A stretch of DNA of 64,000 bases from a virus. Its lineage: Duplodnaviria > Heunggongvirae > Uroviricota > Caudoviricetes. The DNA lies in IMG/VR virus record IMGVR_UViG_3300037419_003079; one strand, written 5' to 3'. Position numbers and translations under genes: made by a program. Below the pieces are notes generated by a model. The model did not search any database. It was not told the origin of the DNA and saw only the letters and a list, made by a program, of their open reading frames with translations. Of this stretch, positions 10,869 to 54,700 are shown piece by piece (positions within the stretch are counted from its first letter, which is position 1; the number at the start of each line of letters is the position of its first letter).

Positions 10869-10942
10869 TGGCACGGATTGTAAGAATCGAACTCACATCA
10901 AAGGTTTTGGAGACCTTTGTTTTACCATTAAACTAAATCCGC
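10869..10942 (-). tRNA. tRNA-Trp (anticodon CCA), 74 nt with encoded CCA
   Basis: Hand-folded from the sequence: acceptor GCGGATT/AATCCGT (G1-U72), D arm GTTT-AATGGTA-AAAC, anticodon arm AAGGT-CTCCAAA-ACCTT (U33, C34C35A36, A37), 4-nt variable loop, T arm GTGAG-TTCGATT-CTTAC, discriminator G, CCA. Confidence 0.75.
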
Positions 10943-33506: not shown

Positions 33507-35030
33507 ATGGCAAAATCTAGTCGTGTAAGATATAACGGTACTGCACCTTTCATTGATGACGCTCAAGTAAACCGTGTTCAAGCGTTAGGTTCATCTTCTC
33601 GTTTAACTACAGAAGACATGAAAGAATTAGGTACACTTAATATCGTAGAAATCGTGGACGATGTACCACAAGTTGATGTTTCTATTGACGCAAATGAAAA
33701 TGGAACAAATGAAATCTTAGGCTTATTAACTAACAAAGGATATGGCTGTCAAGTTGTAGCAGTGCCAAGTGCGTCAGCTATCGGTACTACTAGCGTTCGA
33801 GTTAGACCGGGTTCTTATATGTATCAAGGAAATCGTATTTTATTTCCGGGTGCTACTTTAACTGTAACAGGCTCAACTGCTACTGCTGTATACTTATTAC
33901 CTGCTGTAACTGGTACTCAAGCACAAGTTAGTTCAACTGTACCGGCAGGTGGAGGAATTAAGATTGCTGACTTAGCACCAACAGCAGGTGTATGTACTCA
34001 AGCGAATATCACTGATACTCGTACATTCGCTCAAGTTACTGAGTTAGACTTTGAATTATGTAAAGCTGACATCTTTGTTCCTGTTAAAGAATCAGGTCAA
34101 GGTAACAATGTTAAGCGTACAATGTATATGGAAAGAGTATATGTAAATAACTTAGACTTAGGTTTCCAAGTAAACGGTGTAGCGTCTGCTTCTTATCGTT
34201 TAGAGACTGACAACAAGCGTTGGTTCTTAAATGACTCAGCACAAATGATTGTTGACGAGTACAAGTTAACTGCAACTCCAACTGTAACATTATCTCAAAC
34301 TCCTTGGATTCTTGCTAATGGTAAGAAAATTCTTAAAGCAGTTAAGAACGGTGTTGAGTTAGTAGAGGGTACAGATTTCACTGTAACAGGTACTACTATG
34401 ACATTAACTCCAACTCCAACAGCAGGTGACTTACTAAAAGTTCGTTACACTTCTGCTACTGGTGGACGATTATTCTCTCCTGTTCCTGCTTTAGAAGACC
34501 CACACCCTGAATTAGCAGGTGGAGTAAAAGAAGGGCAAATCGAGTTATACTTAGTTGACAAAGCAGGTACTCCTGACGCAACTAGAACTGCTCGTGTTCA
34601 ATCTGCTCGTATCTCTGTACCTTTACAGCGTGACCAGTTAGACGAATTAGGTTCTTCGTTCCCTTATGAGCGTCCAATGCAGTTACCTGTAAATGTTTCT
34701 GTGTCTTTAGAGTTAAAAGATTCTGACTTAGAAATGATGGCTCGTTTTGCAGGATACTCAGACATCAACACAGTAGATGAAATCGCATTAAGTGACTTAG
34801 TTAAAGATAAAGGATTATTAATCAAAATCTTCCGTGAGACTGATGTTAAGCGTGCTAAGTTACCGGCAGGACACCCTGACAAATATGCAATCAAATCAGT
34901 ATATGTTAGAAACTTAATCCCACAATCAGAAAGTTGGGACGTTCGAGTTGATTCGGACGCTACTCAATCATTTGAGTTCCTAGCACACAATGTACTTATC
35001 TCTGACAAAGTGACTTTGGCTATGCCCTAA
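33507..35030 (+). CDS. major tail protein (putative, with C-terminal Ig-like extension)
   Basis: 507 aa. Strong RBS AAAGGAGAG. Ser/Thr/Val-rich beta protein placed before the chaperone/TMP block. Confidence 0.5.
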   Translation: MAKSSRVRYNGTAPFIDDAQVNRVQALGSSSRLTTEDMKELGTLNIVEIVDDVPQVDVSIDANENGTNEILGLLTNKGYGCQVVAVPSASAIGTTSVRVRPGSYMYQGNRILFPGATLTVTGSTATAVYLLPAVTGTQAQVSSTVPAGGGIKIADLAPTAGVCTQANITDTRTFAQVTELDFELCKADIFVPVKESGQGNNVKRTMYMERVYVNNLDLGFQVNGVASASYRLETDNKRWFLNDSAQMIVDEYKLTATPTVTLSQTPWILANGKKILKAVKNGVELVEGTDFTVTGTTMTLTPTPTAGDLLKVRYTSATGGRLFSPVPALEDPHPELAGGVKEGQIELYLVDKAGTPDATRTARVQSARISVPLQRDQLDELGSSFPYERPMQLPVNVSVSLELKDSDLEMMARFAGYSDINTVDEIALSDLVKDKGLLIKIFRETDVKRAKLPAGHPDKYAIKSVYVRNLIPQSESWDVRVDSDATQSFEFLAHNVLISDKVTLAMP

Positions 35031-35142
35031 TTCAGCCGACCTAGGAACAGGTTGGTCTGTATATAGTCTAAATGACATACTATAGCCTTTAGCCCTCAAT
35101 TTTTTGGGGGCTAGAACGTTAAATAAACAAGGAGGTAATAAA

Positions 35143-36678
35143 ATGCCGGATTTTTTAAATCAACAAGGTACGATATACACATCGGCAAGAAACAATGGAC
35201 AAAATCAACCTATCACTGATACTTCTGTAAAAGAAAGCATAGCATACGATAAAGCAGATGATATGTTTAAAATAAAATCATTGCAAAAAAAATGGAGAGC
35301 AGACTTTAATGGCTCAGTATTAAATGCAGGTAAATGGGAAGTTCTTCAAACAGGCTCAGGTCATACTATAACAGTTGCCAATAGTGAATTAAAAATTAAT
35401 ACAGGCACTACAATCAACTCGGAGACTATTATTCAATCTACGGAGGCTTTTACAGACCCATTTCGTGCTATGATTGGATTAATGATTTCTCAGAAAATAG
35501 TAAATCAACAATTCTATGTTGAGGCTGTATCTGTTGACCCTGTTACTCTAGTAGCAGATGGTTTAAATAAAGCGTCTTGGAGAATTGACTACGCTGATAA
35601 CTCAAGTGCACAGTATGGAGTGTATGAGGTTCAAAATGGCGGAGGTACAATGTTGGCTTCATCTGCTCAGTATATTGCTAATGCTGTAACTTCATATCAA
35701 AATTTCGAGATTGAATTGTTTTCAGATGAAGTGTGGTTTCACACTAGAGCACAAGATAGTGCTAATGGTAGAAGTGCTTCGTTTGTTCGTCAGAACTCTG
35801 CTCCTGACCCAACTGCTTTATATAAGATTCGTATTAGAGCAAAGAACTTAGGTACTGCTCCTGCGTCAGCAACAGACTTAAAGGTTAATTTTGTTACTGT
35901 TATGGATTCATCTGAGTTAACTGCTGAAATTACAGCAGGTAGAGGTGTTTCATCTCCGGGTCAAGCAATCGGAGTCCAAGTATTAAACACACCTACTCAA
36001 TATGTTGTAGCAGGTGTTCTAGGCTCAAGCTCAACAACAAACTTAGGTGCGAGTGCTACATACACTGCTAGTTCCATTGACAATGGTTCTAGTACACAAT
36101 TATATAATCGTTTTAGGGTTTCTGTTCAACATACAGCAGGTTTAGTACCCGGTCATCTAACATTTGAAATTTCCACTGACAACACTAACTTTAGGGAGAC
36201 ACATCGTATTCCAATTCCTTCTGATGGAAATTATCGTACTTTCGACTTGCCTATAACAGCTAGGTATTTCCGTTGGAAATTTATCAATGGTTCTACTGCA
36301 CAAACATCATTCTTTATTCAGGGAATGTATGTTCGTCAAGACGGAGCAATCGACTTTGATAAATCAATGACATTTGTTCACTCAACTACAGCATTAGGAA
36401 TATCGGCTACATTTACAGGTACTACGCTAGACTTAGGTTCTAATCATTCAATTAATAGACATAGAGCACTGGTTTTTGCAGACCAAACAGGAACAGTATA
36501 TCTAGAGCAATCAAGAGATGGCTCAACATGGAGAACAACAGCAACAGCAAATGTTACTGCTAATACTCCTACCACACTAGAAGATATGGTTATATCTCGA
36601 TATGTAAGAGTTAGATATGCAAATGGTGGAACTGCAAACACTGTATTTGAACTACAAAGTGCTTTAATTAGACAATAG
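35143..36678 (+). CDS. tail-associated ConA-like/lectin-fold protein
   Basis: Start refined to the ATG at 35143 (AAGGAGG RBS). Laminin-G/glucanase-like N-terminal half (WRADFNGSVLNAGKWEVLQ) and a beta-sandwich C-terminal half. Confidence 0.5.
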   Translation: MPDFLNQQGTIYTSARNNGQNQPITDTSVKESIAYDKADDMFKIKSLQKKWRADFNGSVLNAGKWEVLQTGSGHTITVANSELKINTGTTINSETIIQSTEAFTDPFRAMIGLMISQKIVNQQFYVEAVSVDPVTLVADGLNKASWRIDYADNSSAQYGVYEVQNGGGTMLASSAQYIANAVTSYQNFEIELFSDEVWFHTRAQDSANGRSASFVRQNSAPDPTALYKIRIRAKNLGTAPASATDLKVNFVTVMDSSELTAEITAGRGVSSPGQAIGVQVLNTPTQYVVAGVLGSSSTTNLGASATYTASSIDNGSSTQLYNRFRVSVQHTAGLVPGHLTFEISTDNTNFRETHRIPIPSDGNYRTFDLPITARYFRWKFINGSTAQTSFFIQGMYVRQDGAIDFDKSMTFVHSTTALGISATFTGTTLDLGSNHSINRHRALVFADQTGTVYLEQSRDGSTWRTTATANVTANTPTTLEDMVISRYVRVRYANGGTANTVFELQSALIRQ

Positions 36679-37306: not shown

Positions 37307-37978
37307 ATGGCAGAGGCTAAAAAGAAAGAAAGTCAGGAAATGAGCAATAAGGATAAGCGTGAAAAAATGACAGAGGTTCAAACTGGAAGACGAGTTTTTG
37401 ACAGTGAGAAATACGGTTTACTACAAATTCGCTATCCAAAGGTAGAGGAGAACCGATTAGCAGATTGGGAGTATTCTAAAGTATTCCAACAAGCTATTAT
37501 GGACGACATTCCAACTAATCGTGAAATGGAAGAATTAATTAAAAAGAAAAAACTATGGACTAAGAAAGATGACGAGCGTATTGAGCAGATTCGTGAAGAA
37601 ATCAATAAGCAATTAACATTGCTATCTAAGATGGAAACAGAGAAAAACATGTTGCCTATCGAGATGAAGATTGAAGAACTTCGTGATGAAATGTTTGCTT
37701 TACAACAAGAAAAGCAAAAATATTTCAATAATACTGCTGAGGCAAAAGCTGACGAGGCTAAGATGTCATTCTTAATTCATAAGTGTACAGAATATGCAGA
37801 GAATGGTAAACCTGTATGGAATAAATATGCTGAATTTAAGGAAGAAGAAGACCAACAAACTGTTAATATGATTGTATACCAATTTTTAACATTTATTAAT
37901 GGCTTACCTGCCGACTTCCTTGCAAGCCCTTCTGAGGACGAAGGAGAAACAGACGAAGTAGAAACTACTGAGGAGTAA
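37307..37978 (+). CDS. putative tail assembly chaperone (acidic C-terminus)
   Basis: 223 aa with coiled coils. Ends ...EDEGETDEVETTEE. Sits before the TMP. Confidence 0.45.
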   Translation: MAEAKKKESQEMSNKDKREKMTEVQTGRRVFDSEKYGLLQIRYPKVEENRLADWEYSKVFQQAIMDDIPTNREMEELIKKKKLWTKKDDERIEQIREEINKQLTLLSKMETEKNMLPIEMKIEELRDEMFALQQEKQKYFNNTAEAKADEAKMSFLIHKCTEYAENGKPVWNKYAEFKEEEDQQTVNMIVYQFLTFINGLPADFLASPSEDEGETDEVETTEE

Positions 37979-38197
37979 TAAGTAAATAACTACTATCGTA
38001 CTGTGATACATAGAGATATGATAATAAGTAGCATAGCGAACCAAGCAAAGGTATCCTAATGTGTTAGGCAACACTTTAACAAATAAGCCTGACCTTGTAG
38101 TAGCTATACTAACCTTGCCCCCAAGACAAGGTGCTTTAGTTCACAAATAACGGTAGGTAGAAATATTGCTTATGAAAGACAATAGATTTCTCCTCGT

Positions 38198-38638
38198 TTG
38201 CCTTCCATTCGGAATAGGGTTCTGAGAGAAGTAGCTAGGGGGCAGGGAGAAGTTGGAGCAGAATGGAGAGCAAGATGGAAAGCTAGTAAAGATACTGGTT
38301 CACCTCTATTTGGTGGTATAGTAGCCGACTGGAATCCATCACAAGTTGCTCTTGCATACTGGTTCTCATTTTATGATAATATTTACGAACACCCTGAGAG
38401 ACCACCTATGAAAGTCATAAACAACGATGACCTACTAGATAAGTGGGTAGAAGATAAGACTAGAGAGATGGAGAAAAGGGCTAAGAAAGGAGATACCTCT
38501 AATACAGTATCAAGAGGTGCTCTAGAATACGATGAAGTAATCATATTCGATAACGCAGACGAAGAATACTACGAAGACCTTGTTGCAAGTGATGGAGACG
38601 GTGATTCGTATGAGTTTAATGGTGTGGATTACGATTAA
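38198..38638 (+). CDS. acidic ORF upstream of TMP without canonical start/RBS
   Basis: 146 aa. Only TTG/ATT starts after an in-frame TAG. Acidic C-terminus resembles chaperone 'T' segments. Confidence 0.3.
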   Translation: MPSIRNRVLREVARGQGEVGAEWRARWKASKDTGSPLFGGIVADWNPSQVALAYWFSFYDNIYEHPERPPMKVINNDDLLDKWVEDKTREMEKRAKKGDTSNTVSRGALEYDEVIIFDNADEEYYEDLVASDGDGDSYEFNGVDYD

Positions 38639-38730
38639 GAAGGTAAAGGGTAGGGTTAGGTTTTCAGGTGAACTATACCCTTCCCTATTTTTTATATAAA
38701 CGTACAAATTTTAAGAAGGAGGTTAAAGAG

Positions 38731-41700
38731 ATGGCAGGAAAAGACTTTAAGTATATTATTAATACCGAGTTAAAGTTAAATACAGGCTCTCTAAAAAAAT
38801 TATTAGAAGATGTAAAAGATGTAGATACTTCCATACGCAACCATTTCAATAAAACTGGTAAAGGTGGTATCAAACTACCTATCAGTATTGATAAAGGTGC
38901 TAGTTTAAATAACTTACAATCAGAAGTAAAGGCAGTAATTACCAACTTCAACAGAAGTCAAGCACCTAAGATTAAAATCAAAATGGAACTTGATAATAAA
39001 AGTGCTGAGGCTTTAAAGCAACAAGTAGACAATGTTAAGCACCATCTTAACAATATTAATAATAGCAAAGAAAATGTAAATATTAAGACCTCTCTTAAAG
39101 TTGACAAGGGCGAAAAAGAAAAAGTACAGAAACAAGTTGGCGACATCAAAGCAACTATGACTGTGGGATTAAAAATAGACCAAAACGATTTAAGAGTTGT
39201 TAAAGGTCAAATAGAATCTTTAAGACAAGAAGTTGTAAACACTAGTAGAACTAGAACAACTAGAAACGGTGAGGTAGTAGGCAGTTTCCGTGACCATGTT
39301 AACGATAGAACTGCGTCAGTTGGCTCTAGAAGTACAGCAGACAAAGACTTACTTAATGCTAAGGCTCAGGCTCAGGCAGAGAAGGATATGGCAAGTGCTA
39401 GAAGGCAAAATGCTCAAGCACAAAAAACTGAATTACAAGTTGAACAGGCTATCACAAAAGAAAAGGAAAAGCAAGCTAAGTTAGACAGAGAAAATACAAA
39501 CCTTTTCAAAATGAGAGACCAATCAACTAGAAGATTGACTAAGGCACAAGATACTCTAACTCAACTAGAGTCAAAGGCTAACGGTTCTAATTGGAGAACA
39601 CTATCTACTAATGACCAAAAAGCATTATCAGGTCAACTAGACACATATAGAAAAAAGGTAGAAAAGTTCCAAAGAGAAAGAGATAAGATTGACAATGCAA
39701 TCTTAAACCAATTACCTAACAACTATTACAATCGTAAGCCATTAGTTGACCCTATGAACGCAACTAGAGGCAGAGTTGTAATGAATACCAACTCTAATGT
39801 TCAAGCACAGATTCAATCACAAATAAAGGCTCAGAGACTAGCTGAACAACAAGCACAAAAGGAAATAGAAAGAGCACATAAGCAAGCTGACGCTCTAAAT
39901 AGAAAGTATGACCAAGACCGTGCTAGACAACAACAACAAGCTAGGAGAGACGCTGAGTGGAATGGTGCTGTACATAGATACGGTGGCAACAGACAAAAAA
40001 CCATTCTTGATGATGAAATGGTTTTAAGAAATCCTGACGCTAGTAAGAATGACAAGTTAGAGGCTCTTGAAAGATTAAAGCAAAATGCAGGTGGATTAGC
40101 TAGGGAAATGAATCAAAACCTAACTCGTTCATTTGAAGTATTTAATCGTAATGCTGATGGAACCATCTCTAGAACTAGAACCGCACAGTATGAGTTCACT
40201 AGATTCGGAGACGCTGTTGACCGTTCTAACAAGTTTATGAGTACTCTTAGAAACACTATGCAATATGCAGGTATTACGACTGCTTTCATGGCTATGGGTC
40301 AAGGTATTCAAATAGCTGTTCAAAGTATGATTGATTTTGAGGCTCAAATGTCTCGTATTCAATTGCTAACTACAGACCTAAGAGATGGTGGTCTAAACCA
40401 AGCATACTCAGGTTTCGGATATAGTAAAAATAACATAAAGCATAATACTCGCAGAGATGTATCAAATCTTTCTCAAAAATACGGAATGTCTGCTACTGAC
40501 ACTGTAATGCCAGTTTATCAACAAGTTATGGCTAGAAGTGAGCTGATTAAAGGTAATGGAGATAAGCCTAGCCCTGTGTTGGCAAATAAGATTACAGACC
40601 AAATCTTAAAATATAGTGCAATTACATTAGGACCTAATGCAGGTGCAGATGATGTTAATCGTATATCTCAAGATATGTTATCTCTATATCAAGGGCTATA
40701 CAAAGGAAAAGGTCAACAACATGTATACGACATGGATAGATTCGTAGACTTCATGACTCTAATGAATGGTAGTGGTGTCAACACTAACAACATTATGGAC
40801 GCTATGAGTGAAGTTGCTCCTGACGCTATTAAGAAAGGTATAGACCCTAGGAGAGTAGCAGGTATGCTAGGTGCTTACAATTTATCTGATAGTGATTCAA
40901 GTGGCTCTAATATGACAACAGTTGCTAAAACATTCTTCGGTGGATTAGCTAGATATAAAGATAGTGAGTCTATCCAATCAGGTCTGAAAACACTAGGCAT
41001 TGATACAACTCAAAACTATTCTCAAGAAGAATTATTAGACTTAGTTGTTAAGAATTACAAAGGTTTGAGTGATACACAAAAAGAATCTGTATCTAGAGAC
41101 TTGTCATCTGTTAATGGTAAAGGTATATCGCAAGCACCTAAGATTCAAAAGTTCTTAGACGCTAGTGGTTCTGAATATGCTGAAACATTCAAAAAGAATA
41201 TGACTAGCACTGGATTAGCTGACAATGCACTTGATACTTATCTAAAAACTGCTAAAGTTCAGTTCGGTCAATTAAAGCAAGAATTGACTGAGACGGTTGA
41301 ACTATTAGCTGAACTAGGTGCTTTAGATGGTCTTAAAGCATTGCTTGGTGGATTCAAAGTTGCTGTTCAAACAGTAAATGGTTTCCTAGATATAATTGTT
41401 AGACTAGGTGACGCTAGTGAGAAAATATTTGGATTCAATATTCCTAAATATGTGACACAAATTTTAGCATTAGCAGGTGCATTTAAATTAGTAACTGCTA
41501 CGATGAAAAAGTTTCAACTTGGAACTGGATTGCTTCAAGGTGGTAGTTCATTAATAGGTGCTCTTACTCAAGGAGAAATGATTACTCGTGCCTCTTTCAA
41601 CGGAAGAACTCAAAGGAAAGTTAATGTAGAAGTTCCTCATACTGGAAAAGGTTCAGGCGTAGGAAATGTTATCGGTCAGGCAGTAGGTTGGGTACTTATG

Positions 41701-44700
41701 GGAGGCAATCCTTTCAAAAGAGGTGCTAATGTTGCTAAAGCAGGTGAAGTTGGAGGCAATGTAGCAACAAACTTATTCTCTAAACTAGGAACTTCTTTAA
41801 AAGGATTACTTCCAATACTAGGTAGGTTTGCAGGAATCTTGCTTAGATTAAGTGCTATAGGTGCTGTCATAGGAACTGCTGTTTGGGTAGGTAAGAAACT
41901 ATGGGACATGAATCAAAAGCATGAGGCTAATGTAAGGAAAGGCGAGTTCAAAAACTTCAACAAGGTATATGGTGGTGGAGAAGAAGACAAAGAGAAATTA
42001 GCTAAGGACTTAAATACTTGGAAAGACTGGAATGACAAAAACAAAACTGTAATAGTTTCTAGAAATGGCTCATTCCACGGAAACCCAATGCCTTCGAGCG
42101 AACCACCTAAGAAAAATAAAATGCCCAAGGAGATTGAAAAACTTCAAAAACAATTCTCTGAAATGGGAATTACTTACTCAACTGTCGCAGGATTAAACGG
42201 TAACAACACTAGTACTATAGCGTACAATGCCGAAGGAAAAGATGGCAAGATATATAAACAACATTTTAATGCCGATGACAAAGGCGGTTGGAAGGATATG
42301 ATTGACACTTTAGGTGCTAAGGGCTTAGATAAAGACGCTCAAATAGCAGAGAAGTGGAAAATCGCTAACAACGAGGCAATTAAATATCAAACAGAATTAG
42401 GTATAATTAATGACTTAACTGAGAAGTTCAATAGAACTATGAACAGACTAGGTTACGATATGTCTAAAATTGACTTTAACTTTATGGGTGCTGAAAACTC
42501 GTCAAGTGCTAGCATTGCTAAGATTAACCTTATCAATGGTGCTATGTCTGATTTAAGTGGAACTATTACTGAGTTAACTGACAAAGGTAACCACTTTAAA
42601 GAGCAAGCAGGAATTTATGACACTAAAATTACTGGTCAAAGAAACAAGATTATAAAAGGAGGTTTAATGTCTAAGGCAGAAATGGACGACTTAGACCAAA
42701 CTTATAAACTTGCCTATGATTCAGGAAACGCAGACACTATCACTAACCAGTATGAAGTAACAGATAAAACTAGAGACAAACTTAAAAAAGCAGGTATGAG
42801 TAAGAAAGATATAGAAAAAGAACTTGCTAAGAGATATGCAGTTAGTGAATATCTGTCATACAAACAATCTAATGCAGGATTTGTAGACGCAGACAAAGAA
42901 ACAGAGGCTCAAATTCTACAAACTAATATGGCTATACTTGAGAGACAACAAGCATTGAAACAGTTAACTGCTCAATTACTAGTGTCTCAATCTCAGATTG
43001 ATGTATTCAATGCTAAGATTAGTGCTATACAGTTTGGTACTGGTAAAGCCAAAACTCTACTTGATTTATCGAATACAGACGAAGAAAAAATCAAGAGAAG
43101 TGGAGACCTACTAAAATCTCAATCTACTGAGTTATCTGCATACAGAGCACAATTAAATTCTGTCTACGCTCAAATGAGTAGAATTAAGGCTCAAAATGGA
43201 GGTCAAGATTTCTCAATCGACACACTATATAATCCGGGAGAGAACGGACTATCAGCAGAGCAAAATGCTTACAAGCAACTACTAGAACAACAATATAGTA
43301 TTCATGACAATATTAACTCTACAACAGTTGCTATGAAGGAACAAGCAGACCAAGTTAAAGAAATGGTGCTTAATTCTGATAAGTATGCTGATGTGTGGGA
43401 AAGAGTTCAAAACCGTATTCAACTAGTAAAAGACCTAAACAACGAGATTGCTAGCATTAAAACTGACCTATCATTAGTTAACAATTTCTCTAATATAAGA
43501 AGTGCTGTTACAGGAGGCTCTTATATTCAAGATAGAAATAGTAGATTAGAAGGTATCCGTGATAGAGGATTAGATGGATACGAGAAAATCATGACTTCTC
43601 TTAAAACTTATGCAGGAGACGAACAGAAACTTGTTGAGGCATATGATGAAATCAATAAGTCTATGGGTGGAGAATTTGACAATGCGTTCATTCAACCACT
43701 TAAAGACTTAATACAAAATGATTTCACTAAAGCAGGAAACCTTATTAGTGATGGTGCAGGTAAACTAGACCAAGTACTAACATATTGGGCAAACAATATA
43801 ACTAGTGGACTTCTAACTCAACAGTCTCAAAATTTCCAATCTGATTTAGCAGGAACAACTGGAACTGGTGGTTCAGTAATTCCGGGATTCACTGGTGGTA
43901 TCAATACTAAAAATGCTACTGACGCTGAAAAACTAGACGCTTATATTACTCAGCAATTCGGGTATAAAAAAGGAACTAGAGAGTTTAACTCTATGAAGAA
44001 ACAAATGCAAGCTAGTATGACTCCTGCTGAAATCAAAAAAGAAGTTAATAGAGGAACTATTTCGGTTGGTAATAATAAGGCAGTTGCAGATTACACTGAA
44101 AAAATAAATTCTTATTTTAGCAAAACTGGAAGAACTAAACTTCAAGGAACTGGAAATATGTTCGTTCAAGCAGGTGCTAAATATGGTATTGACCCAATGT
44201 TCTTAGCGTCTATCGCAGTTCAAGAAACTGGTGGTAAATCAGGAGTAATCAATGGTGCTTATAATGTTGGTAACATCAAAGGTACTGGTAAAGCTAATGC
44301 TGAGTGGAACGGTACTAAGTGGGTTAATCCGGGAGACGGACTAACATATAGAAAATACGGTTCTCTACAATTAGGTATTAATGACTTAGCTAGGTTACTA
44401 AAAGATGTATATATCAGCCAAGGATATGATACTATTCCTAAAATTAACAGCAAGTATGCAGAAGACCCTAACTGGAAATACGGTGTAGCTAGTATCTACT
44501 CTAGTATGTCAGGTACATCTAAAGAGTCATTGCTAGGTGGAACAACTATGTCTGCATTAGGTGGTGGTGGAGGTACATCAGTATCATCATCTTACGGAAC
44601 TATTAGAAAAGGTTCTAAAGGAGCGTCAGTTAAAGAACTTCAAAAAGCATTAGGGGTTAATGCTGACGGTATCTTCGGTTCTGCAACTGAAAAAGCTGTT

Positions 44701-47700
44701 AAAAGCTATCAAAAGAGTCATGGGCTAACTGCTGACGGTATTGTAGGTTCTAAAACTTGGAGTTCATTAGGTATAGGTGGAGGTTCATCTTCTTCAAGTA
44801 CATCAGGTGTTGGAAAAGGTGGAATGGCAGTACTTAATAGTCTAGTTAATAAATCTGCTTCTCAAGGAGGTCTAGGATATTCTTGGGGTGGAGGTCATGA
44901 TAAAGGAGATTGGGATTCATTTATCAAAAAAGCTAAAGCTGACTGCTCAGGACTTGTTCAACATTTCTATAGAGAATTTGCAGGAGTAGAATTAGGAACT
45001 GGTTCGTCTAATAGCATGTGGCAAAATAGCCAAGGTAAAAGGATTACAAATAAAGCAGACCTACAAGTTGGTGATGTAGTCTATTTTGGTAGTGGAGGCA
45101 AAGTAACTCACACTGGTATCTATGCAGGAAACGGTCAATACATTGGTATGAACAGTGGAGGTCCTAATAAGAGTGGAGCACCACTTAAAAAGGACGCATT
45201 ACGAAGCGACTTTGTTGGAGGCAAAAGATATGACGGTGCTAATGCTAGATTAACATCAGGAGGCAGTGTTGCAGGTGCTCTAGGTGCAGATGTGCCAACA
45301 GTAGCACAGATGATTAAAACTGCTTTTGGAATGTTTAAAGAGGCAATCGAGGCTGAAATGGCTATAAACAATGTTGCAACAATTAAAGAGTCATACAATA
45401 AAGACAAGACATTGGGTTATGGTCATGGTAATATCCGTGATGTACTAGGTACAACTGGTAGATTAGGTGCTTATGATAGAAACTATCAAGCTAGAGAAGA
45501 AATCTATGACGCTAAGTACGGTAATGTAGAGCAAATGAAAGCACTTTCTAAAACTCGTGCTCAATATGTTAAGGACGCTAATAGTGCATTGAAGGCAGGT
45601 AAAACTGACGAATATAATGCGAATAAAGAGGCTGTATCTTCTATTGACAAACTTATTGCTACTTTAAAAGAAAACAATAAGAAATTAGACGAGTGGGATA
45701 AAGAGTTAGTAAAAGCACTTCAAGGAGACCCTAGATATAATGCTAGTAATGCAGGTTACTACATAAAAGGTGGGTACAATAAGTTAGCTACTATGCAAGA
45801 CGGAACTACTGATTACTATCGTACAGTTGAAGAACTTAATGGTATGAATAATCAGTACATGACGACTAAGAAACGATTATCAGTAATGGGTGAATTTTGG
45901 AATACAACAGGTCTTGAAACTGGTCACTACAATGCAGTAAAGAGAAAGTCAGACCAAGAGGACATCAATGTTGCGTTTGTTAAACTGAAAGAAATTCAAA
46001 AGGTTTTAAATTCATTCGCTCAAGGAACTCAGAATTGGTACTCTACTCTTGAAGATGTAGTTGCAGTATATCAAGAACTTCGTGAACTTGATGAAAAGAG
46101 ACTTGAAAATGCTAAGGCATACTTTGAGATGACTGGTCAAGGTGCTCAAACATATATTAATCAACAAGCATACCTGAATAGCAAAAGTTACTCTGAAAAC
46201 AGAAGAAACCTTAATGTTGCTAAACAAACCCTTACTAATGACAAACTGAAAAGAGCGTCAGGTGCTAAAGGTATGGACGAAAATCAACAACTGGCTACAC
46301 TACAAATTATAGCAGGTTTGCAAGACGCTTTAATTAGTCAAATGAATGAGTATCGTCAAGCTGTTATTGGTGCTTTTAAAGCAGGTGCTATGTCTATTCA
46401 AGAGTACATAGATAGAATGTCTGACCTTCGTGATGTGCAAAATGAACAGAAAGAAAATGCTCTTAAAATGATTGATTCTATCTCTCAAGGTTTTGAGCAA
46501 TCCCTGTCAAATGCACTAGCAAGTGGATTCATGGGCAACATGGATTCTACTCAAGGTTTCATAGATGGTATCAAGCAGACATTAGCAACAACTATAGCTT
46601 CTCAACTATCAGCTACGCTACTTAATAACACTGGTCTACAGAAAGTTATTAATGACTTAATCACTTCGGTAACTACTGCGGCTACAACTGGAAACCCTGA
46701 TGATATTGCTAATATGTTTAACAATAACAACTTCGGAGACCAAATTAATAACGCACTAGCACCGTTCCTACCTTTAATCGAACAAATTGTTGCCTCAACA
46801 GATGGTATATTCTCTATCATGAAAGACCAACTGTTTAATGCACCACAAGGATTCAAAATTGACCAATACTTATATGACCAAGCTAAAGGTAAGAGTTTTG
46901 AAGGTGTTAAGAACTGGCAACAAAATGGTGAAACTAATGAGGCAGGTTCTCCTATTGGAGGAGTTGGAAGTAATACTCCTATAGTTACACCACCGGGAAC
47001 AACACCGGGAGGAGTTCCGGGAGGTACATCTAAACCACCAACAGGGACACCGGGTTCAACTGGTGGAACACCTAACACTGGTAAGGGTGGAGCAGGAGCA
47101 CCTGATAGTGGAAGTGCTGTTAAGAATCCTACAACTGACAACTCTAAGGTTAATACACCTCCTAAATCTTCGGGTGGCAAAGGTTCATCAGGCTCAGGTC
47201 ATAATCATGGGACTGTTAACAAAGGAGATAGAGGTGAGGCTGTTAAGGAAATCCAAAGGGCTGTAGGAGTTAAGGCAGACGGTATCTTTGGTTCTGATAC
47301 TGAAAGAGCTGTTAAGGCTTACCAAAAGAAACACGGACTTAAAGCAGATGGTGTAGTTGGTAAGGACACTTGGGCTGTTATTCATAAGGGTAACGGTGGA
47401 AGTAGTTCGGGTAGCAAAGGTAATTCTAATTCAGGTAGCAAAGGAACTACTAAGACTACTAAGCAAGCACTTAATTTCCGTAGTAGTCCGGGAGGAAAGG
47501 TAATGAGTGTATTACCTAAAGGTGCTAAGGTAAATTACCTAGGAATGGAAAAAGGTTGGGCGAAAGTAAGCTACAAAGGTAAGACAGGTTATGTTGGTAA
47601 AGATTATATTTATCATACTGGTGGTATCGCAGGAATGATGAATTTTGCTAATGGTCAACAACTTAAAGCGAATGAGATTCAAGCTATTATGCAAAAAGGT

Positions 47701-47937
47701 GAGATAGCATTACAACCTAAGCAATTAGCAACTTTACTTGGTAACACAGTACCTAAAGCAACTGCTGAGGGCAACGGTGCAGGAATCAATATCAATGTCA
47801 ATGTAACTGTTGAAGGTGGAGATTATGACCAAAAAGGAATCGAAAAAGTTGTCGAAACATCTGTTGAAAAAGCTATGACTGAGTTCAAGCGTCAACAAAG
47901 ATTAGGTAACTTATCATGGAAAGGAACTTCCTACTAA
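38731..47937 (+). CDS. tape measure protein with lytic transglycosylase, 2x PG-binding, NlpC/P60 and SH3b domains
   Basis: Start refined to the ATG at 38731 (AAGGAGG RBS); 3,068 aa. SLT-like GIDPMFLASIAVQETGG. PG_binding_1 twice (KELQKALGVNADGIFGSATEKAVKSYQ and VKEIQRAVGVKADGIFGSDTERAVKAYQ). NlpC/P60 Cys-His (ADCSGLVQHF ... VTHTGIYAG). C-terminal SH3b-like domain. Confidence 0.9.
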   Translation: MAGKDFKYIINTELKLNTGSLKKLLEDVKDVDTSIRNHFNKTGKGGIKLPISIDKGASLNNLQSEVKAVITNFNRSQAPKIKIKMELDNKSAEALKQQVDNVKHHLNNINNSKENVNIKTSLKVDKGEKEKVQKQVGDIKATMTVGLKIDQNDLRVVKGQIESLRQEVVNTSRTRTTRNGEVVGSFRDHVNDRTASVGSRSTADKDLLNAKAQAQAEKDMASARRQNAQAQKTELQVEQAITKEKEKQAKLDRENTNLFKMRDQSTRRLTKAQDTLTQLESKANGSNWRTLSTNDQKALSGQLDTYRKKVEKFQRERDKIDNAILNQLPNNYYNRKPLVDPMNATRGRVVMNTNSNVQAQIQSQIKAQRLAEQQAQKEIERAHKQADALNRKYDQDRARQQQQARRDAEWNGAVHRYGGNRQKTILDDEMVLRNPDASKNDKLEALERLKQNAGGLAREMNQNLTRSFEVFNRNADGTISRTRTAQYEFTRFGDAVDRSNKFMSTLRNTMQYAGITTAFMAMGQGIQIAVQSMIDFEAQMSRIQLLTTDLRDGGLNQAYSGFGYSKNNIKHNTRRDVSNLSQKYGMSATDTVMPVYQQVMARSELIKGNGDKPSPVLANKITDQILKYSAITLGPNAGADDVNRISQDMLSLYQGLYKGKGQQHVYDMDRFVDFMTLMNGSGVNTNNIMDAMSEVAPDAIKKGIDPRRVAGMLGAYNLSDSDSSGSNMTTVAKTFFGGLARYKDSESIQSGLKTLGIDTTQNYSQEELLDLVVKNYKGLSDTQKESVSRDLSSVNGKGISQAPKIQKFLDASGSEYAETFKKNMTSTGLADNALDTYLKTAKVQFGQLKQELTETVELLAELGALDGLKALLGGFKVAVQTVNGFLDIIVRLGDASEKIFGFNIPKYVTQILALAGAFKLVTATMKKFQLGTGLLQGGSSLIGALTQGEMITRASFNGRTQRKVNVEVPHTGKGSGVGNVIGQAVGWVLMGGNPFKRGANVAKAGEVGGNVATNLFSKLGTSLKGLLPILGRFAGILLRLSAIGAVIGTAVWVGKKLWDMNQKHEANVRKGEFKNFNKVYGGGEEDKEKLAKDLNTWKDWNDKNKTVIVSRNGSFHGNPMPSSEPPKKNKMPKEIEKLQKQFSEMGITYSTVAGLNGNNTSTIAYNAEGKDGKIYKQHFNADDKGGWKDMIDTLGAKGLDKDAQIAEKWKIANNEAIKYQTELGIINDLTEKFNRTMNRLGYDMSKIDFNFMGAENSSSASIAKINLINGAMSDLSGTITELTDKGNHFKEQAGIYDTKITGQRNKIIKGGLMSKAEMDDLDQTYKLAYDSGNADTITNQYEVTDKTRDKLKKAGMSKKDIEKELAKRYAVSEYLSYKQSNAGFVDADKETEAQILQTNMAILERQQALKQLTAQLLVSQSQIDVFNAKISAIQFGTGKAKTLLDLSNTDEEKIKRSGDLLKSQSTELSAYRAQLNSVYAQMSRIKAQNGGQDFSIDTLYNPGENGLSAEQNAYKQLLEQQYSIHDNINSTTVAMKEQADQVKEMVLNSDKYADVWERVQNRIQLVKDLNNEIASIKTDLSLVNNFSNIRSAVTGGSYIQDRNSRLEGIRDRGLDGYEKIMTSLKTYAGDEQKLVEAYDEINKSMGGEFDNAFIQPLKDLIQNDFTKAGNLISDGAGKLDQVLTYWANNITSGLLTQQSQNFQSDLAGTTGTGGSVIPGFTGGINTKNATDAEKLDAYITQQFGYKKGTREFNSMKKQMQASMTPAEIKKEVNRGTISVGNNKAVADYTEKINSYFSKTGRTKLQGTGNMFVQAGAKYGIDPMFLASIAVQETGGKSGVINGAYNVGNIKGTGKANAEWNGTKWVNPGDGLTYRKYGSLQLGINDLARLLKDVYISQGYDTIPKINSKYAEDPNWKYGVASIYSSMSGTSKESLLGGTTMSALGGGGGTSVSSSYGTIRKGSKGASVKELQKALGVNADGIFGSATEKAVKSYQKSHGLTADGIVGSKTWSSLGIGGGSSSSSTSGVGKGGMAVLNSLVNKSASQGGLGYSWGGGHDKGDWDSFIKKAKADCSGLVQHFYREFAGVELGTGSSNSMWQNSQGKRITNKADLQVGDVVYFGSGGKVTHTGIYAGNGQYIGMNSGGPNKSGAPLKKDALRSDFVGGKRYDGANARLTSGGSVAGALGADVPTVAQMIKTAFGMFKEAIEAEMAINNVATIKESYNKDKTLGYGHGNIRDVLGTTGRLGAYDRNYQAREEIYDAKYGNVEQMKALSKTRAQYVKDANSALKAGKTDEYNANKEAVSSIDKLIATLKENNKKLDEWDKELVKALQGDPRYNASNAGYYIKGGYNKLATMQDGTTDYYRTVEELNGMNNQYMTTKKRLSVMGEFWNTTGLETGHYNAVKRKSDQEDINVAFVKLKEIQKVLNSFAQGTQNWYSTLEDVVAVYQELRELDEKRLENAKAYFEMTGQGAQTYINQQAYLNSKSYSENRRNLNVAKQTLTNDKLKRASGAKGMDENQQLATLQIIAGLQDALISQMNEYRQAVIGAFKAGAMSIQEYIDRMSDLRDVQNEQKENALKMIDSISQGFEQSLSNALASGFMGNMDSTQGFIDGIKQTLATTIASQLSATLLNNTGLQKVINDLITSVTTAATTGNPDDIANMFNNNNFGDQINNALAPFLPLIEQIVASTDGIFSIMKDQLFNAPQGFKIDQYLYDQAKGKSFEGVKNWQQNGETNEAGSPIGGVGSNTPIVTPPGTTPGGVPGGTSKPPTGTPGSTGGTPNTGKGGAGAPDSGSAVKNPTTDNSKVNTPPKSSGGKGSSGSGHNHGTVNKGDRGEAVKEIQRAVGVKADGIFGSDTERAVKAYQKKHGLKADGVVGKDTWAVIHKGNGGSSSGSKGNSNSGSKGTTKTTKQALNFRSSPGGKVMSVLPKGAKVNYLGMEKGWAKVSYKGKTGYVGKDYIYHTGGIAGMMNFANGQQLKANEIQAIMQKGEIALQPKQLATLLGNTVPKATAEGNGAGININVNVTVEGGDYDQKGIEKVVETSVEKAMTEFKRQQRLGNLSWKGTSY

Positions 47938-47985: not shown

Positions 47986-48999
47986 ATGTCTCAAAGATGG
48001 AAACTAGGGAATTATCAATTTACTGTAAATCCAAATAGATACGGAGAAAGCGTAGAGGTAGTTGGAGACACTGTTAAAACATTAGACGGAACGGTAATAA
48101 GTCAACCAACTGAATTAGATGAAAGTTATGAAATAACATCTGTGTTTTTTCAGAGTAGACCTAGAATTGTAGCAGAATTATCCTTTCCAAAATCGCAAGG
48201 ACTAAAGTTTGTTAATGGAAATTACTACTTGCTAGATAATACAACTAAGAAAGTAAATAAATACAATAAGAATATGTCTTTGTTAAGTACAACAAACATA
48301 ATCGACACTCCAAATGGAGAGAACCTTATAGCTTTAGATGTTGAGTCAGATGGAACTATTTGGGCAGTTCAAGAAAGTGTATCTCCAAGTAAGATTCACA
48401 AAGTAGTTAATACTACAAAAACTATCTACAGTATGCCAGTTCAAGTTCAGGGAACTGTTGAGGGAATATGTGTTGATAGTAGCTTTATTTATATCGTAAC
48501 AGATTTAAGGAAGTTGTACAAAATTAGTAAATCAAACATGACAAGCGTATCATCAGTAAGTCTTCCATTTATATCTTACAATAATTTAGGCTATCAAGGT
48601 ATGTCTATTATAAAAGGATACTTGGTAATGTCATTTAACGATGGAGAACAGTCAGGTGCATATCATATGGATATAAATGATGGTAGGGTAGTTAGTAGAT
48701 TCTCAATACCAAATACAACTTACACAGAGTTAATAGACGTTACTCATGACGGAACTAACTTTGTATTTTTATGTAATGGTGGAACTAATGTTAAATATTC
48801 AAACGGAAACACACTTCTTGTAGATATTTATGAATTAGAAAATCAGATTCAGAATTATGGGTATTTAAATTTAGTAGATGACATGGGTGTATCTAGAAGG
48901 GTTACAGTTACAAACTATGGCTTTGAGAGAGAAGATAATAGTCTAACAAAATACCAAGTTAATCTAAGCATTAAAAAAGTAGGTAGGGGTGTTAATTAA
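47986..48999 (+). CDS. distal tail protein (Dit-like, putative)
   Basis: 337 aa. First gene after the TMP. Confidence 0.5.
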   Translation: MSQRWKLGNYQFTVNPNRYGESVEVVGDTVKTLDGTVISQPTELDESYEITSVFFQSRPRIVAELSFPKSQGLKFVNGNYYLLDNTTKKVNKYNKNMSLLSTTNIIDTPNGENLIALDVESDGTIWAVQESVSPSKIHKVVNTTKTIYSMPVQVQGTVEGICVDSSFIYIVTDLRKLYKISKSNMTSVSSVSLPFISYNNLGYQGMSIIKGYLVMSFNDGEQSGAYHMDINDGRVVSRFSIPNTTYTELIDVTHDGTNFVFLCNGGTNVKYSNGNTLLVDIYELENQIQNYGYLNLVDDMGVSRRVTVTNYGFEREDNSLTKYQVNLSIKKVGRGVN

Positions 49000-51754: not shown

Positions 51755-54700
51755 ATGAGTAAGTTTAACAACAGATACTTAAAATATTCAACAAACACAA
51801 ATGACACCTACGCTGATTACGGTGAAGTAGTAAGTGTAATTAGTGACAAAATAGTTAATCTAGATATGGGTGGAACAGGGTACATTCTAGAGGCTGTTAA
51901 CTGTGATAATTCATATATACCTAAATTAGGTGATTGGGCTACTGTTGAATGGAGAAATGGTCAGCCATTAGCAAAAGGTGGAACTAGCATGTCTACAGGA
52001 CTGCGAGACATCAATGATAATGTTACTATTATTTCTACAAGTGACATAGCTAGTGGTGTAGTCAACTCAGACCACATCAGAACAAATACGATAGAGGCTA
52101 GACACATTACTGCTGAATCTATTCAAGCAAACCACATTTCAGCAAACTCTATTAATGCAAACCACATTACTGCTAACGCTATTACTACTGTTCAGTTGTC
52201 TGCTAATAGTATCACGACTGACAAGATACAAGCAGGTGCGATTCAAGCACAGAATATTCAAGCAGGAGCAATAGGTGCAACGCAAATTAGTGCTAACTCC
52301 ATTAACGCAACGCATATCACAGCAAACGCTATTCAAACTCAACATATTTCAGCAAACGCTATTCAAGCAGGACAAATAAGTGCTAACGCTATCCAAACTC
52401 AACATATCTCGGCAAACACTATTACTGCTAGTCAGATTAAAGTTGACGCTATCAATGCTAGCCATATTTCTGCTAACTCCATAACTTCTAGTGAGATTTC
52501 TGCGAACGCAATCCAATCAGTTCACATTAGTTCTAATGCTATCAATTCAAACCATATTAATGCAGGAACTATTAATTCAGGTCATATTAGTGCAAATGCA
52601 ATTCAATCACAACATATTTCAGCAAACAGTATTGACGCTAGCCATATTAAAGCAGGGGTAATTAATGCTACACTAATCTCTGCTAACGCTGTTCAAGCAC
52701 AACACATTTCAGCAGGAAGTATTACATCTACACATATCAGTGCTAATGCAATACAATCTCAACATATCAGTGCAAACAGTATTCAAACTAATCACATCTC
52801 TGCTAACTCAATAACTGCTAGTAAGATTAGTTCAGATTCAATCTTTGGATACCATATTGTTGCTAATAATATTACTGCAAGTCATATTACTGCAAATGCG
52901 ATTCAAGCACAACATATATCTGCAAATAGTGTTCAATCTGCTCATATTAGTGCAGGCTCTATTAATGCAGGTCATATCGTTTCAAATGCGATTCAATCAA
53001 ATCACATTTCTGCTAATTCAATTCAAGCAAGTCATATAACAGCGAATGCAATCCAAACGCAACACATTTCAGCTAATACGATTGTTGGTAGTCAAATTAA
53101 AGCTGATACGATTAGTGGTAATCATATCACTGCTAACACTATCCAAGGTAAGCATATTCAAGCTGACACAATTAGTGGAAACCACATTACTGCAAATAGT
53201 ATTGATACTAAGCATGTTAAGGCAGGAAGTATTACTGCTACACAAATTTCTGCTAACTCTATTACTTCTAGTCACATCTCTGCTAATAGCGTTCAGTCTC
53301 AGCATATCTCGGCTAACTCAATTCAGTCAAGTCATATCTCAGCTAACTCTATTAATGCAGGTCATATTATCGCTAACTCAATTCAATCTAGTCATATTAG
53401 TGCAAATTCTATTCAATCAGGACACATTTCTGCTAACTCTATTCAGACTCAACATATTAGTGCAAATACAATCACTGGTGGAATGATTAAATCTAATGAG
53501 ATTTCAGGTAATCACATTCAAGCAGGAAGTGTAGACACAGACCATTTGACGGTGGGAAGTAGAAAAGAAGGATTGCTAGGACAATACTTTACATATAACT
53601 CTGCAAGTGGAAATAGTAAATTCCAAGTTTACAAGGGTAGTCAAATAGACCCTACTATTAACTTCTCATGGGGAACAGGTTCTCCTGCTATTGTAGGTCA
53701 GAATGATAGTTTCTCAGTAAGATGGCAAGGATTCATCTATGCACCTGAGACAGGGACTTACTCATTCCATTTAACTGCTGATGATTTAGGAAAAGTAGTT
53801 GTCAATAACACTGTTGTTGTAAATCAACTTTCTTATTCAGGTGGGGTAGAGCAAACAGGGACTATTTCTCTTACACAAGGAAACTGGTATCCTTTCTTAG
53901 CAGAAATGACAGAAGGTACTAGTGGAGCAATGGCAATAGTAAAATGGACAAAACCATCTCTAGTAAAAGAAGTTGTTCCTTCTAAATATTATACACAAGG
54001 TAACACTGTAATTGATGGTCAAACTATTACTACTGGAAGTATTACTGCCTCTGCAATTCAAGCAGGTACAATTACTGCTCAATCAGGTATTCTAGCAAAT
54101 GCAGTTATTCAAACAGCTAATATTGCTGACGGTGCAATTACAAATGCCAAGATTGGTAACGCTGAAATCAAAACTGCTAATATAGCAAGTGGTAATATCA
54201 CTAACGCATTGATTCAAGACGCTACTATCCAATATGCTAAAATAGCAAGTGTAAACGCTGATACAATTACAGTTGGCAAAATAACTGGTACTCAAATTAG
54301 TGGTAGCACTATCGAAGGTCAGAATATCAAAGGTAATACAATATCAGGTAATCACATCGTAGCTAACTCCATTGATTCGCTACATATCAAGGCAGGTGCT
54401 ATTACTACTACAGAACTTTCTGCACAATCTATTACATCAGATAAAATTCAAGCAGGTTCAATTACTGCTGATTCTATTCGAGTTGGTAGTATTAGAGCAG
54501 AACATATTTCTACTGTAGGCTTAGACGCTAACATCGTTTCTGTTTACAATCCAACTACAGGTCAAACATTAATCGGTGGAGGATATTTAAGAGTAGACGG
54601 TTTAGATGTAGGGGTAGTACAATCGGATAACCTAGTTGGTAACGGATTATTCTTAACAGCCTCGTCTGCATTTGGTTCTAAGAGAGATAATCCTTATGGT

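Follow-up and report, generated by a model that had tools for sequence, protein, structure and literature searches.

What does a phage do with a single tail protein of more than 3,000 residues, and why should such a protein carry modules directed at peptidoglycan? The question is raised by a 64,000-nucleotide (nt) stretch of Caudoviricetes DNA, virus record IMGVR_UViG_3300037419_003079 (hereafter the window, taken at its full length), which encodes on its plus strand a protein of 3,068 amino acids (aa). An earlier note, made from the letters of this DNA alone, had read the gene as a tape measure protein (TMP) with four kinds of cell wall-active modules and had predicted from it a tail of ~450 nm. 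We find that the gene very probably encodes the TMP of a large (~160-170 kb) siphovirus that has no cultured representative and whose host is probably a member of the Paenibacillaceae, and that wall-directed modules are embedded in this ruler. The RNA structure predicted at the junction of two chaperone genes immediately upstream is more surprising than the giant TMP itself.

Identification of a giant tape measure protein

The reading frame is open from 38668 to 47937, with an ATG at 38731 located 7 nt past an AAGGAGG motif and a stop codon ending at 47937; the predicted product has a mass of 333.7 kDa and a pI of 9.3. Given the composition of the window, in which a codon is a stop with a probability of 7.3%, the chance of an open frame this long is ~5e-102. 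Six metagenome contigs, the longest of them 166 kb, encode exactly the same protein, and the gene is therefore not an assembly artifact.

The structural genes of the window are arranged in the order large terminase (TerL; 21223), portal-MuF protein (22972), capsid protein (27338), small connector-sized genes, tail tube protein (33507), two chaperone-like open reading frames (ORFs; 37307 and 38198), the 3,068-aa protein (38731) and further tail genes, one of which (50095) encodes a tail protein of phrog_1887. The succession of tube, chaperones and giant protein is the same in at least six related loci. DNA and tblastn searches of 50,697 phage records with the giant protein and the tube protein returned domain-level matches and no full-length match. 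A profile (A2) was prepared from the aa 470-1060 region of five full-length relatives and searched against 1.84 billion representatives, yielding 126 proteins, of which ten had E-values below 1e-30 and were all 2,559-3,445 aa in length, followed by weaker matches. In eight of the ten short, weak matches scanned, the PhageMin_Tail family (PF10145) fell exactly over the A2-matched stretch, and alignment of A2 by hhalign with a profile of those PF10145-type proteins (A3) gave a probability of 99.65% and an E-value of 4e-25 over 381 columns. A PDB profile search with the core produced nothing usable, and a word-indexed search with A2 returned nothing, missing the family itself as well. Hydrophobic stretches, which usually follow the core of TMPs, were read by eye from the translation at aa ~870-960, where they stay under the 1.4 hydropathy cut-off; the strongest membrane-span-like segment lies C-terminal to them [Table 1]. 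Homology and position thus establish the predicted 3,068-aa protein as a distant homologue of PhageMin_Tail-type TMPs occupying the TMP slot. The tape measure call made in the earlier note is borne out by gene order, profile homology, hydrophobic segments and the existence of equally giant relatives, as are the gene's position at 38731-47937 and the product length by the ORF and its AAGGAGG motif.

Predicted wall-active modules embedded in the ruler

The module previously taken for an SLT-like lytic transglycosylase turned out to be GH73-like, and thus a putative N-acetylglucosaminidase. PF01832 scores 34 bits on the window protein and also matches four of six relatives (best E 1e-11). The protein displays the GH73 motifs 'QETGG' (Glu1832), 'NVGNIKG', 'YRKYGS' and 'KYAEDPNW', and Glu1832, Y1909, A1910 and W1915 are invariant in an alignment of six relatives (A1). 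In an AlphaFold (AF2) model of aa 1785-2175, the predicted local distance difference test score (pLDDT) is 70-90 over this domain, the top Foldseek matches of which in the PDB were 8yxk_A (C. difficile Ecd09610; TM-score 0.74, root-mean-square deviation 2.7), LytB, FlgJ, Auto and AtlA. The SLT family (PF01464), in contrast, reached 15 bits against a cut-off of 21.3 over a 38-residue fragment, no SLT structure figured in the top 50 fold matches, and this assignment was rejected.

The other modules were recovered much as they had been described. The NlpC/P60 domain (PF00877, 57.8 bits) matched RipA, RipB and MepS among PDB sequences (E 1e-9) and, through a low-confidence part of the model, the papain-like folds of Acd24020, SagA and CwlO by Foldseek. 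Cys2072 in 'DCSGLV' and His2127 in 'VTHTGIY' are both present, and this Cys, the predicted nucleophile (window 44944-44946), is the only one in all 3,068 residues. PG_binding_1 (PF01471) scored 99.1 bits over two stretches, with 5nm7_G as PDB match (E 4e-11), and the two repeats, formerly placed at aa 1960-2020 and 2830-2890, are located at 1953-2016 and 2823-2888. PF08239 (43.8 bits, aa 2913-2960) accounts for the proposed C-terminal SH3b-like domain. Four of the five domain calls of the earlier note thus hold in the Pfam search, the SLT label being the one that was misapplied. Together, the folded domains amount to 458 aa, or 15% of the TMP. Profile matches show them in two places of a conserved scaffold, as a predicted central GH73 - PG_binding_1 - NlpC/P60 block and a C-proximal PG_binding_1 - SH3b pair.

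A conserved scaffold with exchangeable cassettes

Five full-length relatives of 2,846-3,459 aa were found in a large protein database, and the family comprises at least 13 clusters at 50% identity, the representatives of which are 2,559-3,459 aa long. Common to the 13 representatives are four regions: the N-terminus ('FKYIIxTELKL'), the core, the block at aa 2501-2720 (found by phmmer in 12 of 12 representatives, E 1e-47 to 1e-99) and the last ~110 residues, with the motif 'YHTGG ... NL.xKGxSY', which are presumed to form the tail-tip end. The modules, for their part, vary from member to member. GH73 is present in most, including the window protein, and P0007 has a true SLT domain (108 bits) in the same slot; NlpC/P60 is found in seven members, and Peptidase_M23 takes its place in P0002 and P0004; PG_binding_1 and SH3b occur in some members only. 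The window protein and P0003 harbor the fullest set, and a domain scan detected no lytic or binding module in P0013. These alignments and domain scans show that the predicted relatives retain the scaffold and exchange the modules as cassettes. Since GH73 is swapped for SLT, and NlpC/P60 for M23, at a fixed site, we would argue that selection acts on activity and not just on bulk.

A 'GKASNLPKHHP' repeat, present in five to seven copies spaced 34-56 residues apart, was observed in P0002 (aa 333-597), P0003 (aa 418-564) and P0004 (aa 340-646), and is missing from aa 200-400 of the window TMP. It is largely because of this repeat that P0002-P0004 are ~330-390 residues longer. Repeat gain and loss is the usual route by which TMP length, and hence tail length, drifts, and the differences in copy number imply differing tail lengths among these close relatives.

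Predicted tail length and the question of processing

Bacillus phage Tsamsa, the genome of which is 168.9 kb in size, has a TMP of 3,123 aa and a tail of 440 nm, corresponding to 0.141 nm per residue. In TM4, removal of a 114-residue hydrolase motif from the TMP reduced the tail from 200 to 180 nm as predicted, or ~0.17 nm per residue; because this deletion shortens the tail, embedded lytic sequence counts toward tail length. Applied to the window TMP, ratios of 0.141-0.15 nm per residue predict a tail of 433-460 nm if all residues count, and one of 349-392 nm if those of the domains (458 aa), either alone or together with the linkers, are left out of the count. By analogy with Tsamsa and TM4, a tail of ~350-460 nm is thus plausible, and the ~450 nm first proposed falls within this range. 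The accompanying statement that such a tail would be among the longest known is right in so far as it would be long and equal to that of Tsamsa; it would be no record, the tail of P74-26, at nearly 1 µm, having been described as the longest known.

The main rival reading is that the TMP is proteolytically processed, or that only part of it, such as the segment on one side of the lytic block, serves as the ruler; the tail would then measure ~260-330 nm, with the lytic block freed as a separate virion enzyme. In support of it, the Tsamsa TMP runs as two bands of 280 and 100 kDa, and a cut after NlpC/P60 in the window protein would give products of 237 and 97 kDa. The share of folded domains given above (458 aa, 15%) counts in the same direction. 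Both lambda gpH and T5 Pb2 are cleaved, which also speaks for processing. Yet the embedded hydrolase motif of TM4 contributes its ~0.17 nm per residue to the tail, the full-length Tsamsa TMP fits the 440 nm of its tail, and no cleavage motif was identified in the window TMP. On balance, we consider processing unlikely.

A predicted siphovirus tail and a probable Paenibacillaceae host

The top Foldseek matches of the modeled 507-aa tube protein were the tail tube of P74-26, T5 pb6 and the tube of DT57C, all of which are fused double-domain proteins forming trimeric rings. No sheath was found among these matches, and a PDB profile search with the tube protein yielded nothing usable. The tube gene is the most conserved of the module (68-70% identity in relatives versus 35-45% for the TMPs), and related loci have nothing tube-sized between it and the chaperones. 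On the strength of a T5/P74-26-type tube fold and of the lack of a sheath gene, the modeled structure points to the non-contractile tail of a siphovirus. A myovirus was considered and rejected, there being no sheath gene and the 507-aa protein being the tube protein. Between tube and chaperones, the window has an ORF of 524 aa (35104-36678, plus strand) whose C-terminal domain is of the F5/8 type C (galactose-binding-like); a gene of comparable size is missing from this position in L006, L008, L011, L051 and L053.

The TerL protein of the window is ~30% identical to those of Staley and Slash, two long-tailed siphophages of Bacillus megaterium. The annotation of Staley gives its 2,249-aa TMP a peptidoglycan-binding domain; in the same record (L010; NC_022767, 29253-37674), the TMP is interrupted and divided into pieces by a gene for an HNH homing endonuclease. 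Homologues of the tube protein with 61-63% identity are found in two bacterial assemblies, those of Paenibacillus xylanexedens and Chengkuizengella axinellae, the former of which, GCA_003833245.1, has it on the 161-kb contig RPHH01000009 along with the same module and a 2,974-aa TMP. Paenibacillus is a genus of the Paenibacillaceae, and Chengkuizengella belongs to this family as well. Because the tube homologues sit in Paenibacillaceae assemblies, a thick-walled Gram-positive host is likely, in line with the thick wall suggested in the earlier note, and the relationships of these sequences indicate that the host is probably a Paenibacillaceae bacterium, likely a Paenibacillus. The C. axinellae locus itself (L012; JAVAMP010000002.1, 78796-100307) is chromosomal; besides a tube homologue of 503 aa (61%) and the same chaperone pair with the junction helix described below, it harbors a sigma-70-like gene. 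It is devoid of a TMP, in place of which come two CBM_4_9/Laminin_G_3 proteins, of 406 and 1,347 aa.

Proposed mode of action and the evidence weighed

The mode of action that we envision is modeled on the precedents of lambda gpH, TP901-1, T5 Pb2 and TM4. A trimer of the TMP, kept extended by the chaperones, would template the polymerization of the tube protein and thereby set a tail of ~350-460 nm. Upon infection, the TMP would exit through the tail tip with its C-terminus first, such that the C-proximal PG_binding_1 and SH3b domains would be the first to reach the wall and would hold the protein there. The GH73 - PG_binding_1 - NlpC/P60 block would follow after ~900 residues, traveling unfolded and refolding outside, and the refolded GH73 and NlpC/P60 domains could then make local cuts in the thick peptidoglycan, in its glycan strands as well as in its peptide stems. 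Next to reach the membrane would be the hydrophobic segments at aa ~870-1051, which might help form the channel for the DNA.

Several points weigh against this account. The TMP on which it is built is a predicted protein. None of the TMP models of Pfam, NCBIfam or PHROGs matched the 3,068-aa protein directly, and its homology to TMPs is visible through profiles only, A3 moreover having been drawn from A2's own matches (the PF10145 label that Pfam gives the A3 proteins is independent of A2). PDB profile searches did not identify either of the two genes directly after the TMP, at 47986 and 48999, as Dit or Tal. The enzyme block lies ~900-1,270 residues from the C-terminus, implying a late exit and an unfolded or compact state in the tube. 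As to the modules themselves, the relatives differ in the beta-hairpin loop where some GH73 enzymes have their second acidic residue, and the NlpC/P60 part of the AF2 model has a pLDDT mostly below 50. Finally, the reading of the latter domain as an endopeptidase stands as regards the domain match, the Cys and the His, but not as regards a canonical third catalytic residue: the position concerned, His+12, is occupied by Gly, where RipA and MepS have Glu or His, P0003 has Asn and P0005 has Thr. To judge from the sequence, an Asn at His+14 might replace it.

The failure of TMP family models to match directly also bears on whether the protein could be a giant virion protein of another kind, namely a fused tail-associated lysin, a tail fiber or an internal ejection protein, as does the presence of a second giant ORF of 2,850 aa 4 kb downstream. 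That ORF, with its adhesin-type domains (PA14, F5/8-C), is nevertheless the better fiber candidate. The profile homology to the PhageMin_Tail core, the position directly after the chaperone pair, the hydrophobic region, the two ends conserved as in TMPs and the lack of any other TMP candidate in the structural module all argue for a TMP, leaving a non-TMP protein highly improbable.

The Gly at the third catalytic position of NlpC/P60 and the variable hairpin region of GH73 count toward a reading in which one or both of the 'catalytic' modules are inactive and serve only as wall-binding elements or structural spacers, the protein then being a ruler with adhesive decorations. Relatives such as P0013 without a detectable lytic module, and RipD-like non-catalytic NlpC/P60 proteins among the fold matches, are consistent with this possibility. 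Nonetheless, Glu1832 is invariant in six of six aligned relatives, NlpC/P60 retains His2127 and has as its nucleophile the sole Cys of the protein, and the exchanges of one enzyme type for another argue for selection on activity. We thus give inactivity of the modules about the same small chance as processing, and favor a TMP in which embedded wall modules accompany the ruler.

A structured gap between the two chaperone genes

Tail chaperone pairs are near-universally expressed by -1 or +1 frameshifting. In the window, ORF1 ends with '...NGLPADFL', an acidic tail and the stop codons TAA TAA. The first conserved residues of ORF2, 'LREVARGQGEVGAEWRARW', are encoded from 38222, with no ATG for ~70 codons, and the ~240 nt between the two ORFs contain stops in all frames. 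Loci with such a structured gap are the window, L004-L009, L011, L012, L015, L021, L023 and L048-L053; scanning for the ORF2 motif gave mostly chance matches in the genome collection and added three loci from metagenomes. Among 15 distinct loci, the gap from the invariant CTT codon of 'ADFL' to the first conserved codon of ORF2 measures either 72-105 nt or 295-306 nt, and the latter codon is CTN throughout, with AGA or AGG as the next codon. CTT and CTN make up 20% and 44%, respectively, of the Leu codons of the phage. Relative to ORF1, ORF2 is in frame 0 in seven of these loci and in frame +1 or -1 in the other eight, and none of the 15 has a slippery site or a usable overlap between the ORFs. 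Because all three frames occur and neither a slippery site nor an overlap is present, classical -1 frameshifting of the G/GT type was rejected; stop-codon readthrough was rejected on account of seven in-frame stops in the window.

The gap is bracketed by a predicted helix, the arms of which lie at 37925-37936 and 38208-38221 in the window. In long-gap loci it starts 3 nt past the CTT and ends directly at the CTN; in short-gap loci it starts 6-9 nt past the former and ends 3-6 nt before the latter. The helix is kept in the 15 loci despite sequence change. In the eight long-gap loci, 97.9% of the cells are paired and 6 of the 12 pairs display changes on both sides, a level of pairing reached by none of 500 shuffles, while registers slid along the sequence pair at 15-56%. 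Cognate arms fold at -20.7 kcal/mol, compared to -14.4 kcal/mol for non-cognate and -8.3 kcal/mol for shuffled arms. RNAalifold recovered the bracket helix unaided (61 pairs, 29 of them compensatory), along with further stacked helices in which codons of the acidic tail pair with the insert. The single-sequence fold of the window gap is unexceptional (z -1.6), and Rfam had no match in the gap at the gathering threshold or at E-values up to 10. The covariation indicates that the predicted bracket helix is real.

Tentatively, and with some doubt, we propose that a G-T-type fusion may be produced by skipping the 72-306-nt gap from CTT to CTN-AGR, with the helix joining the two codons, through either ribosomal bypassing or RNA excision. 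In the searchable literature, tail chaperones were linked with frameshifting only and not with bypassing. A possible alternative is independent initiation of ORF2, the helix then being a coupling element by which an unusual start of ORF2 is exposed; it has against it that no start codon is common to the loci and that, in L012, a stop codon immediately precedes the CTA that is the first conserved ORF2 codon. If bypassing or RNA excision were true, the junction would be a novel answer to a recoding problem for which frameshifting is considered the almost universal solution, and its natural series of gaps would lend itself to studying the mechanism.

Coordinates and other features of the window

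The coordinates of the predicted features are compiled in Table 1. A 2,850-aa ORF at 51755-60307 on the plus strand, with a PA14 domain and weak GLEYA and F5/8 type C matches, is probably, on the evidence of these domains, an adhesin-like tail fiber or receptor-binding protein. A tRNA-Trp (CCA) at 10869-10942 on the minus strand is the only Rfam or ARAGORN match in the window. The sign of the GC skew changes near 18 kb, consistent with oppositely transcribed gene blocks.

Table 1 Predicted features of the TMP gene and its upstream neighbors; coordinates are those of the window and residue numbers those of the TMP.
Feature	Coordinates	Strand	Basis
Tail tube protein (507 aa) with two fused tube domains and an inserted beta domain	33507..35030	+	AF2 (pLDDT 79), Foldseek
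Tail-assembly-chaperone-like ORF1, 223 aa, '...NGLPADFL' and acidic tail	37307..37978	+	Position, conservation
Structured gap, ORF1 Leu CTT to first conserved ORF2 codon CTG	37919..38224	+	Covariation, RNAalifold
Chaperone ORF2 (T-like, 'LREVARGQGEVGAEWRARW...'), no conserved start codon	38222..38638	+	Conservation across loci
Tape measure protein gene, 3,068 aa	38731..47937	+	ORF, ribosome-binding site, identical copies on 6 contigs
Conserved N-terminal region, aa 1-180, 'FKYIINTELKLNTGSL...'	38731..39270	+	phmmer, 12/12 representatives; invariant columns in A1
TMP core, PhageMin_Tail homologue, aa ~480-910	40168..41460	+	Profile searches, hhalign
Strongest membrane-span-like hydrophobic segment, aa 1029-1051	41815..41883	+	Kyte-Doolittle, 19-residue window, up to 1.9
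GH73 N-acetylglucosaminidase-like domain, Pfam aa 1809-1926	44155..44508	+	PF01832, 34 bits (cut-off 30.2)
PG_binding_1 copy 1, aa 1953-2016	44587..44778	+	Pfam, local phmmer
NlpC/P60 endopeptidase domain, aa 2031-2165	44821..45225	+	PF00877, 57.8 bits, Pfam aa 2049-2141
Scaffold block of highest conservation, aa 2501-2720, without a known domain	46231..46890	+	52-71% identity across A1
Gly/Ser/Pro/Thr-rich linker, aa ~2735-2825	46933..47205	+	G+S+P+T 53% in the 2701-2800 block
PG_binding_1 copy 2, aa 2823-2888	47197..47394	+	Pfam, local phmmer
SH3b (SH3_3) domain, aa 2906-2962	47446..47616	+	PF08239, 43.8 bits (cut-off 27), Pfam aa 2913-2960
C-terminal module, aa 2959-3068, 'YHTGGIAG ... NLSWKGTSY'	47605..47937	+	phmmer, 12/12 representatives

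Significance and comparison with known systems

An uncultured ~160-kb siphovirus lineage, likely of Paenibacillus, joins the very small number of phages whose rulers reach 3,000 residues, and its ruler emerges as a modular carrier in which glycosidase, peptidase and wall-binding cassettes are swapped at two fixed sites. Such cassette-bearing rulers may be of use for lytic-enzyme mining and for the study of how folded domains pass through a 4-nm tube.

The chaperone pair resembles lambda G/GT in that two ORFs directly precede the TMP gene, the second of them lacking its own start codon. Unlike lambda G/GT, which relies on a -1 frameshift, it has no overlap or slippery site, and the frame of its second ORF varies among loci (0, +1 or -1). 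With T4 gene 60, the junction shares a structured non-coding gap between matched codons (CTT ... CTN) and, in loci with a short gap, a Shine-Dalgarno-like G-run 5' of the second codon. It departs from gene 60 in that no stop codon follows the putative take-off codon CTT, and in the length of the gap, 72-306 nt against a bypass of 50 nt.

As for the ruler, its predicted GH73 domain is like the enzymes Ecd09610, LytB, FlgJ, Auto and AtlA in the 'ETGG' Glu, the 'YA.DP' motif and the fold; it differs from them in being embedded in a TMP and in the variability of the loop of the second acidic residue. With respect to the PF10145/TP901-1-type family, the core aligns over ~380 columns and the Pfam model itself scores nothing on the window TMP; by its sequence, the window family is a distant, much longer branch of PF10145-type TMPs.

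The TMP of Tsamsa (vB_BanS-Tsamsa gp226) is nearly equal in length to that of the window and belongs to a siphovirus of the same genome size class. Its PhageMin_Tail core is at aa 694-894, the window counterpart being at ~600-810, and its SH3b domain, ~100 residues from the C-terminus, aligns with that of the window protein, a 'TGG' motif coming after the SH3 domain in both. Outside the SH3 region the two proteins have no detectable similarity and, unlike the window TMP, that of Tsamsa has no Pfam-detectable catalytic or PG_binding_1 module.

A C-terminal peptidase is part of the ruler protein Pb2 of T5. Hydrolases inside the ruler, as in the window TMP, are likewise found in TM4 gp17 (Rpf-like motif) and in gp076 of Bacillus phage vB_BceM-HSE3 (NlpC/P60 and SLT), the NlpC/P60 domain of the latter being 54.5% identical to that of the window protein. 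The TM4 motif aids infection. HSE3, unlike the window phage, is a myovirus with an annotated sheath. The proteins of TM4, HSE3 and T5 are 1,200-1,300 aa long with one or two modules, whereas that of the window combines, in 3,068 aa, two predicted enzymes and three predicted binding modules distributed over two sites. Rulers of giant size and rulers with muralytic modules have thus both been described before, and the window TMP is an enlarged case of a known theme.

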